14,923 nt of DNA from Thermoplasmata archaeon (lineage in GTDB: Archaea > Thermoplasmatota > Thermoplasmata > GCA-020350865), in NCBI GenBank assembly GCA_020348445.1, contig CP070751.1, positions 1,256,025 to 1,270,947 of the forward strand, given 5' to 3'. Each line of letters opens with the position of its first letter. Position 1 is the first letter of the stretch. Below the pieces are notes generated by a model that was not told where the DNA came from, did no database searches, and worked only from the letters and a program-made list of their open reading frames with translations. Position numbers and translations under genes: made by a program. Shown here piece by piece: positions 3,226 through 14,631 of the stretch.

Positions 3226-5793
3226 ATGAATCCAAAAATAAGAAAAATATTTTCCTTAATCATGAGTATCTTTATTGTTGCTACAATTTTTATGTTTGAG
3301 GTTCCAAATAAGGTGCAGGCCCAACCTACCGAGGAATGGGTTGACAGATACAATGGACTTGGAGATAAAAACGATTATATTGAAGAAATAGCTGTGGACT
3401 CTTCTGGAAATCTAATCGTAGCTGGAACCTGTTATAAATTTTATTCAAAAAACGATTTTTTGACAATAAAATATGATCCACAGGGTAACAAACTCTGGGA
3501 GGTTACCTTTGACGCTTATTATCATCATGACTTTCTTCATGCAATGACAATTGATGATTCTCAGAATATATATGTGACAGGAGCCAACGTAGGGCTCGGT
3601 ACTGATGAAGATTTTGTCACGATCAAGTATGATTCAGATGGAAACGAGATATGGGTCAAAAGATATAACGGCCCGGACAATTATAAGGATAGCCCTTCGG
3701 ATATTGCTGTAGATCCTCAGGGAAATGTGTATGTCACTGGATACAGTTATGGAATTGACACTCGTCACGATTACATTACAATAAAATATGATTCGTCAGG
3801 AAACGAGCAATGGGTAGCTCGATACAACGGACCCGGTGTTGTCCGTGATTATGCAAATGCAATTGCTGTGGACTCAAATAAAAACGTCTTTGTCACGGGA
3901 AGAAGTTATAGCCTCGATTACTATTTTGATTTTGTGACTATTAAATACGATGCAAATGGCAACCAAATATGGATTAACAGATATAATGGACCAGGATTTT
4001 ACTTTGATAATGCCACAGCAATTGTCTTGGATTCATCTGAAAATATTTACGTTACTGGTGTAAGTTTTGGGAAGGGAAAATCCTATGACTATGCCACTGT
4101 GGCATACGATCAACAGGGAAACACACTTTGGATCTCAAGATTTAACGGCCCTGGAAATGGCGATGATTTTGTTTCTGCAATGAGATTGGACCCCTTTGAT
4201 AATATTATTGTCACAGGTTACAGTCATCAAGGGAGATTCCATAACTATGATTATGTCACCATTAAGTACGATAGAAACGGAAACGAGCTTTGGATTGCTA
4301 GGTACAATGGCCCGGAAAATAGATCAGATGTGGCTAGGGATATTTATATTGATAGATATGGAAATACTTATGTTACAGGATCAAGTGAAAATCCCAATAA
4401 TATAACCGAGTTCGTAACTATTAAATACGATACCATGGGAAATGAACAATTCATCAAGAAATATGAACGCCTAAACAGCGATAGAAATGAGGGCCAGTAC
4501 TTGGTGGTGGATGCAGAGGGAAATATCTACGTTTGTGGGTATTGCATAGGCCTTGGGACGTACCTTGATTTCATAACAATCAAATATTCACCACCTTCTC
4601 AAGATCAGCTCATATTTGCAGATGCAGGAGAAGATCAGACAGTATACGAGGGAGATTTGGTGCATTTCGATGGAAGTAACTCTTCTGTATCAGAAGGTGA
4701 AATTCTAGAATACCAATGGGATTTTGATGCAAGTATTGATTCAGATGGAGATGGTAATCCCACAAATGATGTGGACGCAACCGGACCCACTCCTACTTAT
4801 ATGTATGTAGATAACGGGATTTACACTGCGACTCTTACTGTTAGATCAATGGTACCTCGGGAGACAATCCAAAAGGTTGACCAAGATGTCATGTTGGTTA
4901 TAGATAGCTCTAACAGTATGCTTTGGAACGATCATATTGATATGAGGATACATGCCGCAAAGAGCTATCTGAACTGCCTCATCCCGGATGATAGAATGGG
5001 TGTCGTGAATTTCGACACTTCCGCTTATCTTCAAGAGTTAAATACGGACTACAGGAATATCGTGGATATCTTGGAGGCAATTGACAGCTTCGGGGGAGAT
5101 CCCATGGGGATTCCCACTACTTCTGTTTCACCAGCACTGGATTTGGCAATCAGTGAACTTACGGAAAACGGTGATCCAAATCATGAGTGGGTTATCATTC
5201 TCCTGTCTGATTTAGAGGTAATACATTCTGATGTTGATGATATATATGTGCAGATCGATCGGGCTGCTGCAAATGGAATCAGGATATACACAGTTGGTTT
5301 GAACGCTGATACTCCACTTTTGGGAGAAATTGCTAATGCGACCTATGGAATGTTCTATCAAAATCCGAACTCCTCCAACATGAAAGCAATCTTCCAGAAT
5401 GTATCGGAAAAAGCAGGGAATACATATTACGAAGAGCTCTCTGATAACGACACTTGTGAGATAACCGTAATATCGGTGCCAGACACAATTGAAATCGATC
5501 CAGACACTTTAAATCTAGATTCAAAAGGAAGATGGATCACGTGTTATATATACCTACACAGATACGATGTCAACGACATAGATATAAGTTCCATCATGCT
5601 CGAGGATTTGATTCTCGCAGAATGGGGAGACATCCAAAACGACACTCTAATGGTAAAGTTCGATAGGAGCGAGGTTGAAGATTTTATCGGAGCCCCCAAT
5701 GAAAGCATTGAGTTGACGGTTAGAGGTGAGCTTTTTGATGGAACATCCTTTCAGGGCTCAGATACTATAAGAGTTATAGATCCTGGGAAATAA
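3226..5793 (+). CDS. Secreted protein: 8 SBBP-like repeats + PKD domain with inserted vWA domain + conserved C-terminal module
   Basis: Signal peptide ending VQA|Q. Eight propeller repeats. PKD signature DAGEDQTVYEGDLVHFDGSNS...YQWDF...Y.DNGIYTATLTV. vWA MIDAS DSSNS at 4903-4917. Starts 2 nt after the upstream stop. Confidence 0.9.
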   Translation: MNPKIRKIFSLIMSIFIVATIFMFEVPNKVQAQPTEEWVDRYNGLGDKNDYIEEIAVDSSGNLIVAGTCYKFYSKNDFLTIKYDPQGNKLWEVTFDAYYHHDFLHAMTIDDSQNIYVTGANVGLGTDEDFVTIKYDSDGNEIWVKRYNGPDNYKDSPSDIAVDPQGNVYVTGYSYGIDTRHDYITIKYDSSGNEQWVARYNGPGVVRDYANAIAVDSNKNVFVTGRSYSLDYYFDFVTIKYDANGNQIWINRYNGPGFYFDNATAIVLDSSENIYVTGVSFGKGKSYDYATVAYDQQGNTLWISRFNGPGNGDDFVSAMRLDPFDNIIVTGYSHQGRFHNYDYVTIKYDRNGNELWIARYNGPENRSDVARDIYIDRYGNTYVTGSSENPNNITEFVTIKYDTMGNEQFIKKYERLNSDRNEGQYLVVDAEGNIYVCGYCIGLGTYLDFITIKYSPPSQDQLIFADAGEDQTVYEGDLVHFDGSNSSVSEGEILEYQWDFDASIDSDGDGNPTNDVDATGPTPTYMYVDNGIYTATLTVRSMVPRETIQKVDQDVMLVIDSSNSMLWNDHIDMRIHAAKSYLNCLIPDDRMGVVNFDTSAYLQELNTDYRNIVDILEAIDSFGGDPMGIPTTSVSPALDLAISELTENGDPNHEWVIILLSDLEVIHSDVDDIYVQIDRAAANGIRIYTVGLNADTPLLGEIANATYGMFYQNPNSSNMKAIFQNVSEKAGNTYYEELSDNDTCEITVISVPDTIEIDPDTLNLDSKGRWITCYIYLHRYDVNDIDISSIMLEDLILAEWGDIQNDTLMVKFDRSEVEDFIGAPNESIELTVRGELFDGTSFQGSDTIRVIDPGK
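5488..5790 (+). repeat. C-terminal module, copy 2
   Basis: IEIDPDTLNLDSKGRWITCYI...GSDTIRVIDPGK; 27-aa block AEWGDIQNDTLMVKFDRSEVEDFIGAP identical in both copies. Confidence 0.95.
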
Positions 5794-10037: not shown

Positions 10038-10073
10038 ACTTGTATTTTATTCCACAGTTATCCAATCAGCCGT

Positions 10074-10178
10074 GGGCTCATGGTCTAGTTGGTTATGACG
10101 TCGCCTTGACATCCGCAGAGTCTTTTGACCTGCTGGTCAGATCGGCGGAGGTCGGGAGTTCGAATCTCCCTGAGCCCA
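10074..10178 (+). tRNA. tRNA-Val(GAC) with 31-nt intron at canonical 37/38 (10112-10142); CCA not encoded
   Basis: Acceptor GGGCTCA/TGAGCCC+A, anticodon stem TCGCC/GGCGG, loop TT-GAC-A|C, T arm GGGAG-TTCGAAT-CTCCC. Bulge-helix-bulge: TTGA(32-35) pairs TCAG(10137-10140), bulges CA|T and AT|C. Confidence 0.93.
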
Positions 10179-10180
10179 TT
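10164..10180 (+). repeat. att-like direct repeat copy 1 (tRNA 3' end) ATCTCCCTGAGCCCATT
   Basis: 17/17 identical to 13999-14015. Confidence 0.85.
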
Positions 10181-10234
10181 TTACTTTTATATTCTTAAAG
10201 CATGGTTTCTTATAAGACAAAATAGCCCAGGCCA

Positions 10235-10350
10235 CTTTTACCTTTTTAAATATTTGGGTTATTTTTTATATAGGCTTTATCCTACCTCCTGCAAGTGGGA
10301 TAGGGCATTTATTGGGTATATATCCTAACATGGGAGGTTGGTGAAAGTAC
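10235..10350. repeat. 116-bp non-coding element, copy 1
   Basis: About 91% identical (8 substitutions, 2 indels by manual alignment) to 14177-14292. Confidence 0.92.
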
Positions 10351-10424
10351 AAAATTATATTAAAAATATATTTTCTCTATCCAAAATGTCGTGATATATA
10401 TTAGATAATAGTAAAAAGGAGACC

Positions 10425-10550
10425 ATCCGATTAACTAAAAATGACAAATATGTACTCAATCAACTAATTGAACATGGACGAATCTCTGATATCACGATGG
10501 CTAAAAAATTGGACATTACACCTCAAGTTGTTTTAAAAATCAGATATTAA
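10425..10550 (+). pseudogene. Truncated Lrp/AsnC-type HTH regulator fragment
   Basis: Translates IRLTKNDKYVLNQLIEHGRISDITMAKKLDITPQVVLKIRY*: an AsnC-type HTH that stops in the recognition helix. SD AAGGAG is followed by ATC instead of ATG. Confidence 0.7.
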
Positions 10551-10551
10551 T

Positions 10552-12945
10552 TTACTCGTATCTCAAGGCATCTCCAGGTTTGAGCTTGGTAGCCCGAAGA
10601 AGCGGTGCCTGGATTATTAAGATGGTTCCAATTAAAGCTATAAGAAATGAATATAAGATATACTGATAGGGGAAGTACAATACCATCTGTAATTTCATTG
10701 CATCTGCCACCATTTCCGTTAAAATATATGATAATATATATCCAACAGGGATACCAATTACCCAACCGATTATTGAAAGAAATACACCCTCGACACAAAA
10801 CATAGTCCATATATTTTTGGATTTGGAGCCTATGCAGCGCATCATTCCTATCTCCTTTGTGCGGTCTATTACGTTCATTGTGAGTGTGCTCATAAGGCCT
10901 ATCATGCTGATGAAAATAACAAGCAAACTCACTATGAAAAACAAGTCCATAATTCCTTGATTCTGCGCCTGGTTTAATTCCTCCAACACATAATGGATTT
11001 GATTATTCACTACATAGCCTTTTGCTAATAAAGTTTCTTCTATTCTTGTGGAGACCTTATCTATTTCATTTTGATCAGAACTTTCCGTGTGTATTAAAAA
11101 TCCGGAGACTGTATCGTTAATTCGCAGAACGTCCTGAAGGGTGGACAATGGCGCACAGACGGCCTGACCATTATCCATTAGACTTGATTGAAGACCGATA
11201 ATTGTAAATTCGAATTCCCCAGTTGCGGTCATTAATTTAACCTTATCCCCCACATCCAAATCCTCAAATTCGGCAAGGGCTTCACCAATTACCAATACTC
11301 TAGAATTATTTTCCTGATCTTGTTGGGAAATCCATCTGCTGGGGGATGGGTTCGTGGTTTTTTCATAATCCCACATCTTTGTGTTGTAATTATATCCCCA
11401 AATCTCGATTGGACGCTCATTTATCTGGGCGAATGTTGTTAAATATGGCTCCACAAGTTTCACACCTTCAATGTTATCAATGATAAAGGTGTCATCTTCA
11501 TATAGTTGGTTTTCACCGCCTCCCTGGGAGATAATCCTTATATCCCACGATCTATCGCTCCACGCACCTGAGACCGCAATCTGTAAGGAATATCCAAACG
11601 TCACCAATCCCAAAAATACTCCAACTGCCATGGCAACTTGGATTGTGGTTGTGGCACTGCGTCCTTTCTTTCTAGCCGCATTGCGCAAACCCATCTGTAC
11701 CGTCCTGGGCATACCCTTCATACGTAAAAGTAACCTATCCAGTGCTCCTTTTCCGTATTTGCCTGAGATACCATGACTCTCCAGCCCCTCCCTAACCAAA
11801 ACCTTTGTTGACCGCACAAGAGCCGGTAGAGACGCGCCTATAACAACAACCAAACCCACCACAAGGCTGATTAGGACTGTTGGGTAATGAACCATAAAAG
11901 AGGTTTCAAAGCCAAATGGCCGCCCCAGGGTGATAAGAACATAAAAGGAGATGAATATCCCCATAATCGAGCCCAACACTGCACCGATAATACCCATGAT
12001 CAATGATGTCGTCAGGTATGACTTAAACACCTGAAAATTTGTTGCACCTATCGCTTTTAATTGGGCGATCTCCTTTCTTTGTTCCGATATTATCGTGTTC
12101 ATGGTATTGGATATGAGAAATATGCTGCAGAATAAAGCAAGAAATGTAAGAATGGACATGAAGCTCATAAGCTGCTGGAGAAATTCACTTCCAAACCACT
12201 CATCCTCTGATCTTGTTTCAGGTAAATCAGCAAACGCTACCACTGAGGTGTTGTTGGTCAAGTACGAACGAATCTCCTCAATGGTTGTTTCCATTTCCTG
12301 ATCTTCTGTCATCTCAAGATCGAAGGATAGTGTATTGTAGCCTGTGAGATTTCCCAGGTTTTGTACCGTTCCCAAGGTTGTATAGAAAACCGCAAATCCT
12401 TCTAATGTGGCAGAGGAATGTGTTAAGCTCCGTCCTTCACCTGTTATTTTTATAATCCGATCGCTACCAGTGGAATCCTTGACAATGATATCATCTTCTT
12501 TTTTCCATTCATGTATACCGTTGATAGTATTGGTCTGCTCGGAAAGAGTCTCGAAGTCATCTGGATAATCACCCGAAATCTTGAATATCTTGTCGACTTT
12601 CTGGTTAATATAGTTTGAAACTCCTATCAAGATAGCATTATTCCAACGCTCACCTATTTTCACTTTTGTAAGGATGATAGTCCTTGTTTCAATCAGGTTA
12701 ACATTATCGATATCCTCGAGTGCCTGAAGGTTCGTTTGGGTGAGATTTACATCCGTCACGCGTATCCGGACATTGGACATGTTGGCATTTTCCATTTCTT
12801 TAAGAGCGCTTTCATCTGCAAGAGGGGTGACCGCAAAAAGGGATATACCCATCACCCCGAGGGCTATGGTCAAAATTGTGAAGAAGGTTCTTGCCTTCCT
12901 CTTGGAAAGGTCACGAAACGATTTTTTAACGATTGCAGAGACCAA
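10552..12945 (-). CDS. ABC transporter permease, FtsX/MacB/LolE type (two periplasmic-core + FtsX modules fused)
   Basis: Two QRKEIAQLKAIGA / DRTKEIGMMRCIGS motifs, two large extracellular loops, about 8 TM helices, C-terminal KPGDALRYE; TTG start. Confidence 0.92.
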   Translation of the reverse strand: MVSAIVKKSFRDLSKRKARTFFTILTIALGVMGISLFAVTPLADESALKEMENANMSNVRIRVTDVNLTQTNLQALEDIDNVNLIETRTIILTKVKIGERWNNAILIGVSNYINQKVDKIFKISGDYPDDFETLSEQTNTINGIHEWKKEDDIIVKDSTGSDRIIKITGEGRSLTHSSATLEGFAVFYTTLGTVQNLGNLTGYNTLSFDLEMTEDQEMETTIEEIRSYLTNNTSVVAFADLPETRSEDEWFGSEFLQQLMSFMSILTFLALFCSIFLISNTMNTIISEQRKEIAQLKAIGATNFQVFKSYLTTSLIMGIIGAVLGSIMGIFISFYVLITLGRPFGFETSFMVHYPTVLISLVVGLVVVIGASLPALVRSTKVLVREGLESHGISGKYGKGALDRLLLRMKGMPRTVQMGLRNAARKKGRSATTTIQVAMAVGVFLGLVTFGYSLQIAVSGAWSDRSWDIRIISQGGGENQLYEDDTFIIDNIEGVKLVEPYLTTFAQINERPIEIWGYNYNTKMWDYEKTTNPSPSRWISQQDQENNSRVLVIGEALAEFEDLDVGDKVKLMTATGEFEFTIIGLQSSLMDNGQAVCAPLSTLQDVLRINDTVSGFLIHTESSDQNEIDKVSTRIEETLLAKGYVVNNQIHYVLEELNQAQNQGIMDLFFIVSLLVIFISMIGLMSTLTMNVIDRTKEIGMMRCIGSKSKNIWTMFCVEGVFLSIIGWVIGIPVGYILSYILTEMVADAMKLQMVLYFPYQYILYSFLIALIGTILIIQAPLLRATKLKPGDALRYE

Positions 12946-12947
12946 GA

Positions 12948-13631
12948 TTATCCCTCTACGATTTCTCCGTCAAGCATTTTAATATTCCGTTTGGCTTTTT
13001 TGGCAAGCTCTTTACTATGTGTTACATACAGTATCGTCTTTCCCTGGCCGTTTAACTTCTTCAATAGATCGAACATCCTGCCCTCGGTTTTGGAATCGAG
13101 GTTACCTGTGGGCTCGTCACCGATTATTATCATGGGATCGTTTGCTAAAGACCGTGCGATTGCCACCCTCTGCTGCTCGCCTCCAGAGAGTTCCGAGGGA
13201 AGGTTTGTAAGCTTATCGCCCAATCCCACCAGCTCCAGATTCTTTTTGGCAATCTCTGCTCTTTCCTTGACCTTACCTTTTTTAGCAAAGTCCATTGGAA
13301 GCATGGCATTCTCGTGGGCAGTAAGAGTGGGGAACAATTGAAAGAATTGAAAGACAATCCCGATATTCTTTCCCCGCCAGGCAGCAAGCCTGTCCTCCTT
13401 CATCGAATCAATCCTCTCTCCACCTATTGTCACCGACCCCGCAGTGGGCCTGTCTATACCTGTGATCATGTTGAGCATAGTGGATTTACCACAGCCAGAA
13501 GGACCCACAATAGCTGCCAGCTCTCCTTCCTCAATATTCAGGTTGACCTTTTTTAAAGCCTGATATTCCAATTTACCAGTTTTGTATACCTTATCCAAAT
13601 CCCTGAGCTCTATTAATGTCAAGAATCTCAT
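12948..13631 (-). CDS. ABC transporter ATP-binding protein, LolD/MacB family
   Basis: Walker A GPSGCGKS, signature LSGGEQQRV, DEPTGNLD, H-loop VTH. Start is ATG 13631 or TTG 13622 (better SD spacing). Confidence 0.93.
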   Translation of the reverse strand: MRFLTLIELRDLDKVYKTGKLEYQALKKVNLNIEEGELAAIVGPSGCGKSTMLNMITGIDRPTAGSVTIGGERIDSMKEDRLAAWRGKNIGIVFQFFQLFPTLTAHENAMLPMDFAKKGKVKERAEIAKKNLELVGLGDKLTNLPSELSGGEQQRVAIARSLANDPMIIIGDEPTGNLDSKTEGRMFDLLKKLNGQGKTILYVTHSKELAKKAKRNIKMLDGEIVEG

Positions 13632-13811
13632 CCCCTTATAAACTATCACATTAGATCGAATTGGTAAAATAGATAACTCCCACCAGATTATATGCAGATT
13701 TTATCCATTACAACCATCAGATATAAAGGGGGGGAAGCTGTATGGAGGTATAAAAGTTTTTTGTGGCATAATAATTGCTGCTTTCTTGGTTTTTATAGCT
13801 TAACAACCTTC

Positions 13812-13827
13812 AGGATATATATATCCT
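13812..13827. promoter_or_regulatory. 16-bp perfect palindrome AGGATATATATATCCT
   Basis: Read directly; about 180 nt upstream of the ABC operon. Confidence 0.4.
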
Positions 13828-13863
13828 CGCCAAATTATTATATAGTAAAAGAAGTCCAAGCGG

Positions 13864-14015
13864 CTGAGCCCACTTTTACTTTAATAAGTTTTATTCGTGG
13901 GCTCAGTCCGGGCTCTCACGAAATGTTGAGATACTGGCCATGGTGAAAGCCCTAGCGCCCAGGTTATGGTGTTATATGCTTTCGTCTTAAACCTGGGCAT
14001 CTCCCTGAGCCCATT
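13864..14015. ncRNA. Candidate structured RNA or recombination-site array: three tandem hairpins with tRNA-Val-like termini
   Basis: Inverted repeats 13864-13873/13897-13906, 13910-13919/13943-13952 and 13957-13965/13990-13998, loops 23, 23 and 24 nt. Confidence 0.4.
13999..14015 (+). repeat. att-like direct repeat copy 2
   Basis: 17/17 identical to the tRNA-Val 3' end. Confidence 0.85.
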
Positions 14016-14176
14016 ATAAGGCGCAAATTCTCCCTAAGCTCTTGATTATTAAGCTTTGGCTCGAATATGACCGGGCCGTGTTTCGGATTAAGAAGAATAC
14101 ATATACAAACGTAACCGAAATACGAAGGGGGCAACATGAACGCATATATTTACAAGTAACTTGGTGGCCCCGCTCG

Positions 14177-14292
14177 CTTTTACCTTTTTAAAGTTATGGG
14201 TTATTTTTTTATATAGACTTTATTCAACCTCCTGCAAGTGGGATAGGGCATTTATTGGGTACATACCCTAACATGGGAGGTGGTGAAAGTAC
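14177..14292. repeat. 116-bp non-coding element, copy 2
   Basis: Direct-orientation copy of 10235-10350. Confidence 0.92.
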
Positions 14293-14307
14293 GATTCTGT
14301 ATGAAGA

Positions 14308-14631
14308 TTAAATTCGATATTTTCTTCCCAATTTCGTAACGTAATATATGATCCAGTTACCCTGCTGCTTTCCCTCTATAAGTCCACTTTCCTTTAATAT
14401 ATTCAGATGATACGATAGCTTTGAGTCCGAGGTTTTCACAATTTCCTTAATAAGGCATACACATAGGGGTTGTATCGATAACAGATTCAATATCTTAAGC
14501 CTTAGGGGTTCCGATAGGGCGTGATAGACCCTGCTCTGGTGAGCTATATCCTTGTCTTCAACTAGGTCAGCAATCGCCCTAATTCCGCCTTTCTTTTGCA
14601 CTTGCTTTTGGATAGGTTTGGGAATTTCCAT
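14308..14631 (-). CDS. arsR: ArsR/SmtB family repressor with CVC motif
   Basis: ALSEPLRLKIL, LCVCLIKE (alpha3 As(III)-type site), LSYHLNILKESGLI, QGNWIIY; ATG 14631. Confidence 0.9.
   Translation of the reverse strand: MEIPKPIQKQVQKKGGIRAIADLVEDKDIAHQSRVYHALSEPLRLKILNLLSIQPLCVCLIKEIVKTSDSKLSYHLNILKESGLIEGKQQGNWIIYYVTKLGRKYRI

Follow-up and report, generated by a model that had tools for sequence, protein, structure and literature searches.

The window analysed here is a 14,923-nt stretch of the genome G000 (G000 being the source genome, G001 to G004 the other genomes of the genus, L002 a G000 locus, and L069 and L070 metagenome contigs). On its plus strand lies a tRNA-Val(GAC) gene with a 33-nt intron (10074–10178), which is matched by the Rfam tRNA family RF00005 with 55.6 bits and is missed by ARAGORN at default settings. 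An islet of about 3.7 kb is placed between this gene and the structured module described below. The body of the islet (10179–13799) comprises a T-rich trailer, a repeat (D1), a MacB/FtsX permease gene (10552–12945, minus strand; Pfam FtsX and MacB_PCD) and an ABC ATPase gene (12948–13649, minus strand; Pfam ABC_tran), and no integrase ORF was found in the islet by ORF and Pfam searches. Its right-hand end is a conserved left arm (13800–13863, plus strand), which ends at the core and carries a TATA-like box (13838–13845) 20–25 nt ahead of core1. Repeat D1 occurs at 10236–10372 and at 14179–14314 (84–91% identity), each time behind a tRNA-end copy.

The module itself, read directly from the letters, is on the plus strand and opens with core1 (13864–13873), a direct copy of the 3' acceptor strand of tRNA-Val plus AC that is identical in nine of nine modules and forms the 5' arm of hairpin 0. 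The loop of this hairpin is an AT-rich spacer of 23 nt (13874–13896) with a T run and a TATA-like tract. Next comes IR (13897–13906), an inverted copy of the tRNA 3' end that is the complement of 13864–13873 and whose partner can be either core1 or the closing repeat, DR2. Two inner hairpins follow. The first, hp1 (13910–13952), is an extra hairpin with a 23-nt loop, whose arms (13910–13919 and 13943–13952) form 10 bp with one C·A mismatch. The second, hp2 (13957–13998), is the hallmark hairpin of a wider family according to a genome hairpin census, and is kept in nine of nine Val copies; the lower part of its stem is variable, one base bulges on the 3' side, TTA pairs with TAA and the loop has the form TTAT...TCTTAA, such that its arms (13957–13965 and 13990–13998) can be read either as a continuous 9 bp or as 7 bp, a 1-nt bulge and TTA/TAA. 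DR2 (13999–14015; repeat D6) closes the module and repeats, in direct orientation, the final 17 nt of tRNA-Val, a stretch made up of the T-stem 3' strand, the acceptor strand and a two-base flank. The template of the module's repeats is formed by the last bases of tRNA-Val, at 10164–10180 (repeats D6 and D7).

In all, three tRNA-end copies lie within 150 nt, and a decayed fourth (14028–14041) belongs to what reads as the decayed 3' half of a second Val unit (14016–14041, plus strand). This half retains the end of a loop, a 3' arm and a degenerate copy of the tRNA end, and has its homologues in L002 (3' arm of hp2 and core2) and in G001. Beyond it, a weak module-like unit on the minus strand (14065–14204; match to model R1, 24.6 bits, E 2.4e-6) contains a hallmark-type hairpin at 14078–14123, also recovered in the hairpin census. 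An ORF at 13692–13946 is without a Pfam match and spans the repeat, and was treated as spurious. An earlier, sequence-only reading of this segment had pointed to its resemblance to tRNA-Val, and all the identities and stems that it listed were recovered at their positions: 13896–13905 is identical to 10071–10080 (10 of 10), 13999–14015 is identical to the tRNA-Val 3' end at 10164–10180 (17 of 17), and the three hairpins start at 13864, 13910 and 13957, which gives the 46–47-nt period.

On the plus strand, 13860–14018 folds with −59.7 kcal/mol, against −42.3 ± 3.8 kcal/mol for shuffled sequences (z −4.57), and on the minus strand z is −4.94. None of 200 shuffles was as good on either strand. 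Without core1, the segment 13897–14014 has a three-way junction as its minimum-energy fold (z −3.89), and this junction, proposed earlier for either strand, indeed folds equally well both ways. The postulated competition by a 5' anti-acceptor arm is also borne out, with two rival helices of near-equal energies: the three-hairpin conformer comes to −46.1 kcal/mol and the three-way junction to −43.8 kcal/mol, a gap of about 2 kcal/mol on either strand.

Nine complete Val modules could be assembled from the five genomes of the genus and two metagenome contigs, including a second G000 copy (L002) at 2.3 Mb from the window module. Over these nine copies core1 and core2 are unchanged and IR shows two single transitions; the three segments are almost invariant even in the six copies that lie away from a tRNA, while hp1 and hp2 drift there. 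Over the nine copies, hp1 and hp2 exist with many different stem sequences and their pairing is retained. With a hand-set register, 79 of 81 cells are Watson-Crick in hp1, where seven of nine positions show at least two pair types, and 72 of 81 in hp2, and no partner shuffle attained the observed hp1/hp2 pairing. In a model-made alignment of the nine copies the covariation score is 0.330, versus 0.139 in shuffles, of which none in 500 scored as high, and pairing reaches 98.9% in helix 1 and 97.8% of the cells in hp2, where both sides have changed in six of the ten pairs; the covariance-model alignment misregisters hp1 in several rows, which lowers its paired fraction to 55.6%, against the 79 of 81 of the hand-set register. 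The compensatory changes sought in homologues are present in the nine Val modules, and the earlier argument that the segment is more than a bare attR is supported. G·T and C·A cells are rare in hp1 and hp2 and roughly equal between strands (4 versus 6 of 162); in the wider family the counts are 7 versus 18, with inherited and chance matches mixed in. The loops of the Val modules are not conserved among the nine copies, all of which have a TTTT run as well as TATA-like tracts in their spacer. As for hp1, it began as a fold-back derived from the acceptor and has since drifted: its L002 copy retains GGGCTCA/TGAGCCC, and the loops of several copies are similar to the spacer of the family.

The origin of the segment that had been taken for a copy of the tRNA 5' end (13896–13905) must be revised, as it really is an inverted copy of the 3' end. 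The sequence-only reading had itself cautioned that an inverted fragment would mimic a 5' end, and this caveat holds, as judged from the units behind tRNA-Ala, tRNA-Arg and tRNA-Pro. The tRNA-Ala unit has GGACCGG where the tRNA 5' strand is GGGCCGG, and the tRNA-Arg unit GGACGTG where the 5' strand is GGGCGTG; in both, the inverted segment complements the 3' strand base for base, the tRNA 5' strand having there a G opposite U. At tRNA-Pro(CGG), whose gene encodes CCA, the inverted copy extends over the CCA, and its length must hence be counted from the junction rather than from the acceptor stem. The spacer's final base accounts for the extra C that the segment shares with the Val leader. Pairing between leader and trailer was not seen in tRNAs in general, and the idea that the spacer is a general tRNA leader or promoter was abandoned, only one of the first 16 tRNA leaders having scored similarly. 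The direct repeat includes four to five T-stem bases that are left unpaired in the fold, which suggests that it is a footprint of copying.

The module is not specific to tRNA-Val and is instead one copy of a family found behind many tRNA genes. In a census of the whole G000 genome based on an intron-aware tRNA scan (47 dispersed tRNA calls), a spacer and an inverted copy follow 19 of the 47 dispersed tRNA genes. The spacer is exactly 24 nt in 14 of these 19 tRNA-linked units, the inverted copies are 7–11 nt long and reproduce the last bases before the junction, and direct repeats of the tRNA end (12–19 nt) were detected in eight. The family hairpin has a variable stem with one bulged base and a loop that runs from TTAT to TCTTAAG; a strict search of G000 gave 45 matches and a looser one 68, where about 11 are expected by chance, and the loop has the same orientation as the tRNA in 26 of 28 tRNA-linked hairpins. 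The Val segment shows each of the family traits, with a spacer of 23 nt against the usual 24 (13874–13896), the inverted copy (13897–13906), the hallmark hairpin (13957–13998) and the closing direct repeat (13999–14015, 17 of 17). Units also occur in tandem arrays and as partial and decayed copies. A tRNA-unlinked subfamily of about 115 nt, with the inner stem GCCCTTAGG and the outer arms GTGGCCTA/TAGTCCAC, is represented by seven near-identical copies in G000 (at 395434, 924471, 2621079, 3219279, 3473564, 3486833 and 4029794) that sit in unrelated, C-rich flanks, and it looks as if it had spread recently.

All five genomes of the genus contain the family, and a search of 296 other Thermoplasmata genomes did not find it, returning only short tRNA matches. 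Beyond the archaeal relatives and the two metagenome contigs, public pattern scans gave only unrelated matches (bacterial contigs and one Bathyarchaeia contig, which proved on reading to be coding); phage and plasmid collections gave no match to the module, and viral contigs one chance match in coding sequence. Two other arrangements at tRNA genes of G000 were seen in passing. Upstream of tRNA-Ala(TGC) (368440–368700) there are three 5'-flank units; in each, a copy of the first 12–14 nt of the tRNA stands first and a small GTGG...CCAC hairpin after it, an inner hairpin unlike that of the 3'-flank units. At 4640570–4643566 (minus strand), about 25 tRNA genes lie within 3 kb, a few bases apart and without fold-back modules; this dense array looks like an imported tRNA island, possibly of viral or other extrachromosomal source.

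The comparison of Val loci bears on the role of the core. Both joints of the window islet fall exactly in the common core CTGAGCCCA(C), and DNA inserted there is bounded by a direct repeat of the tRNA 3' end (D6 and D7). The islet is absent from the Val loci of G002, G003, G004 and L070, and in G002a, G003b, G004 and L070 core1 is supplied by tRNA-Val itself, which the module directly abuts; upstream, G003 has the same synteny as the window, from a methylmalonyl-CoA mutase gene to tRNA-Val. In L069, the DNA behind a Val module matches the stretch 10165–10351 (trailer and D1) with 91% identity. CTGAGCC forms the end of the left arm at five sites (the window, L002 and three times in G001, twice in L006 and once in L012), and on the right of this core the arm continues into four kinds of sequence. 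These are the module of window type, both in the window itself and in G001, that of L002 type in L002, and, again in G001, either the 3' flank of the ABC genes or an unrelated sequence, G001 being a gapped MAG in which one joint lies at most 1.3 kb from a gap and another starts at a gap. Three other copies have degenerate remnants of a T arm ahead of them in place of the left arm. Breakpoints that share the same 8–10 bases, with flanks swapped in different combinations, would be expected from recombination at the core.

Modules also flank cassettes in G002 (in the order tRNA, module, Fic and AAA ATPase genes, module) and in G003, as they do in the window. Two tRNA-Lys cassettes of G000 (2797500–2800775, minus strand) are each bounded by a copy of at least the last 14 nt of the tRNA, and neither a hallmark hairpin nor an integrase was found with them; since these cassettes are delimited without a module, the insertion of cassettes is separable from the formation of modules. 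Two further features of G002 are mentioned here for completeness. Its tRNA-Val gene (L024:36–190) has a second insertion, in the D-arm region, besides the anticodon-loop intron, so that intron content varies within the genus. Near the tRNA-Val locus, an 843-aa ORF (L027:4504–7035, minus strand) of this archaeal MAG combines two RNase PH domains with KH and S1 domains and is PNPase-like. PNPase is unusual in archaea, and this ORF may have been acquired from bacteria or misplaced in binning.

Candidate enzymes were sought in the five genomes of the genus. Cas1 (PF01867) is absent from all five, a reverse transcriptase is present in two and an IS110 transposase in one, and TnpB was not convincingly found. 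In G000, tyrosine integrases (PF00589) are represented only by two fragments, at 1864225–1864380 and 2412539–2412649, adjoining tRNA-Leu and tRNA-Met, which is how SSV-type integrase genes should look once integration has split them. Y1 HUH transposases occur in all five genomes, with 5–17 matches each. An IS200-like pair in G000 (around 2860309–2860969 and 3338969–3339629) consists of two 661-bp copies that are 100% identical, each with a 157-aa Y1 ORF, ordinary IS200-type end hairpins and no tnpB; the 661-bp element is probably active. No hallmark hairpin was found in the flanks read at the G000 Y1 loci (the IS200-like pair and a pair at 4214–4215 kb), and the searches for Cas1, reverse transcriptase, IS110, TnpB, integrase and Y1 genes found no enzyme linked to the modules.

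From these data, we lean, with a little more than even confidence, towards a fold-back repeat that operates at the DNA level and whose tRNA-end copies act as recombination joints. The standard unit consists of an AT-rich spacer of about 24 nt, an inverted copy, the hallmark hairpin and a direct copy, built in this order onto the end of a tRNA gene; the inverted copy reproduces the last 8–11 bases before the junction and the direct copy the last 12–17 bases of the tRNA. The Val unit is such a standard unit with one extra inner hairpin, hp1. As DNA, the module would act through hairpins or cruciforms on either strand, and its three tRNA-end copies (direct, inverted, direct) could serve as spare joints at which cassettes are inserted, excised or shuffled, so that the tRNA gene would stay undamaged through this traffic. 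What keeps the stems paired could be selection on folding or, alternatively, correction templated by the hairpin. This DNA-level reading is preferred because the inverted copy, whose length is counted from the junction, is perfectly complementary, because G·T and C·A cells are symmetric and the fold is equal on both strands, and because copies can be partial, decayed, in tandem or unlinked to a tRNA, without an Rfam match or targets for the loops. The TATA-like tracts and T runs on the tRNA-sense strand, in the spacer and the left arm, count against it. Moreover, the co-orientation of the loop in 26 of 28 hairpins and the conserved bulge fit a strand-specific product, which may be an RNA or a single DNA strand. 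No mechanism is known to us by which a target would be copied, at fixed spacing, both directly and in inverted form.

A small structured RNA gene on the tRNA-sense strand, whose product would be a putative decoy, switch or guide, is the first alternative, and one we hold to be possible but unlikely. It could take the form of an RNA of about 118 nt folded into a three-way junction closed by an acceptor-like stem, or of a shorter RNA that would begin with either inner hairpin (hp1 or hp2), some 26 nt downstream from the spacer's TATA-like tract, and end in a single-stranded tail equal to the tRNA 3' end. The covarying stems, the conserved bulge and loop ends, the near-constant orientation of the hallmark loop, the T runs and TATA-like tracts of all nine Val spacers and the TATA-like box of the left arm, 20–25 nt ahead of core1, would all suit such a gene, as would the near-invariance of core1, IR and core2 in the six tRNA-unlinked copies in which hp1 and hp2 drift. 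However, RNA stems should show a G·U bias on one strand, and the lack of strand bias among the G·T pairs thus counts against an RNA, which must also face the equal folding of the two strands, the unconserved and target-less loops, the absence of an Rfam family, the G·U of the tRNA that is not retained, and an inverted copy that is measured from the junction and can include CCA.

The module is probably not a tRNA-like RNA in particular. Processing by RNase P and RNase Z followed by CCA addition, as the sequence-only reading had envisaged, is unlikely, since the T arm is missing and the closing stem, 10 bp long in relatives, pairs the discriminator and the next base, which would make a poor substrate for these enzymes. 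Stated in terms of the tRNA family (RF00005), the T-loop sequence is absent and the 9–10-bp closing stem includes the discriminator; an Rfam search over 13780–14330 returned no match even at E ≤1, and, at gathering thresholds and at E ≤1, Rfam recovered only the true tRNA and one chance miRNA match. Nor do the loops look like guides, one of the earlier hypotheses, the best that the three loops give against the genome being matches of at most 13 nt with E ≥0.5. Other RNA classes were considered and set aside: an H/ACA or C/D box guide RNA would need a longer period, and box-like motifs are not conserved between copies; in a hammerhead ribozyme, CUGAGCC would lack the required GA; and in a bulge-helix-bulge processing site the linkers would be staggered, whereas here they are directly opposite.

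One further scheme, which we regard as rather improbable, would make the modules and the tRNA-end cores a tRNA-anchored platform for archaeal gene cassettes, where a putative recombinase would read folded DNA or a hairpin RNA whose 3' tail is the tRNA end, and where IR would be a built-in guide that alternates between two partners, the target in hairpin 0 and the end of the element in the closing stem. Improbable to a similar or slightly greater degree is a folded recombination site of the kind of integron attC, recognised in trans by a structure-specific recombinase. The layout is indeed similar, as an outer stem and an internal loop lead to an inner stem, in which one base is extrahelical, and to a terminal loop that varies; cassettes are bounded by modules in G002, G003 and the window, and the joints lie exactly at the core; but the tRNA-Lys cassettes show that no hallmark hairpin, and hence no module, is needed for insertion, the outer stem differs from tRNA to tRNA where attC would have a conserved R box, cassettes are lacking beside most units, and neither an IntI-like nor a full-length tyrosine recombinase was detected in G000. 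That the locus is plain debris of repeated integrations, with stacked att copies and accidental hairpins, is scarcely believable: the three tRNA-end copies in 150 nt, the decayed fourth at 14028–14041 and the position at the border of the islet would agree with it, but both inner hairpins are kept through compensatory changes in nine homologues, the fold is better than that of all shuffles, and the same plan with its fixed 24-nt spacer recurs behind many tRNAs.

Among known systems, the att duplications made by tyrosine integrases (SSV-type, pNOB8-type and P4-like) have in common with the Val locus a direct repeat of the tRNA 3' end that flanks foreign DNA, an intact tRNA and a conserved element-side arm by the core. 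In contrast to these, the islet has no integrase and G000 only the two PF00589 fragments, so that no cognate integrase of an attR is found in element or genome; the module has, in addition, an inverted core copy and covarying hairpins, and it is present at tRNA-Val without an insert in relatives as well as behind many other tRNAs. Integron attC sites resemble the module in their conserved folding with variable sequence, their extrahelical base and their position at cassette borders. Here, however, the R-box GTTRRRY is absent, the outer stem being tRNA sequence, no IntI was found and G000 has no full-length tyrosine recombinase; the sites are anchored to tRNAs, and cassettes occur without modules too. 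Casposon or Cas1-type integration produces target duplications of 14–15 bp, which the direct repeats approach in size, but Cas1 is absent from all five genomes.

REP, BIME and REPIN sequences are bacterial extragenic palindromes mobilised by RAYT (Y1 HUH) transposases. Like them, the module is a short non-coding imperfect palindrome with many copies, in tandem or flipped, that is defined by structure more than by sequence. It differs in that its outer arms are copied from the adjacent tRNA end and in having no conserved terminal tetranucleotide, and, although Y1 genes exist in five of five genomes, the G000 copies inspected are not flanked by hallmark hairpins, as a RAYT gene would be by its repeats. 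A MITE would have conserved terminal inverted repeats and a parent element; the outer arms of the module vary with the tRNA, and no coding relative carrying the hallmark hairpin was found. Template switching at quasi-palindromes and inversions of small hairpin loops are known in bacteria and in chloroplast spacers. Such switching accounts for the perfect complementarity of the arms, for compensatory-looking changes without selection and for occasional flipped loops, but not for a spacer fixed at 24 nt, for the retention of the bulge and internal loops, for an inverted copy measured at 8–11 nt or for the direct repeat. Finally, the permuted and split tRNA genes of archaea and red algae have in common with the module a 3' acceptor strand, a short spacer and a 5' acceptor-like strand. 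The module, by contrast, lacks the D, anticodon and T arms, its 5'-like strand complements the 3' strand exactly, and no bulge-helix-bulge motif was seen in it.

Extragenic palindromes and tRNA-end att duplications are already known as general kinds, and literature searches found no description of elements such as these. What is new, in the literature searched, is a repeat whose arms are re-tailored to the preceding tRNA and which combines a measured spacer with a conserved bulged hairpin. To this family the Val locus adds a variant with two arms, as well as evidence for the core as a recombination joint. Should the copying mechanism or its enzyme be found, it could explain how cassettes are shuffled without an integrase, and how tRNA genes are protected, in this lineage.
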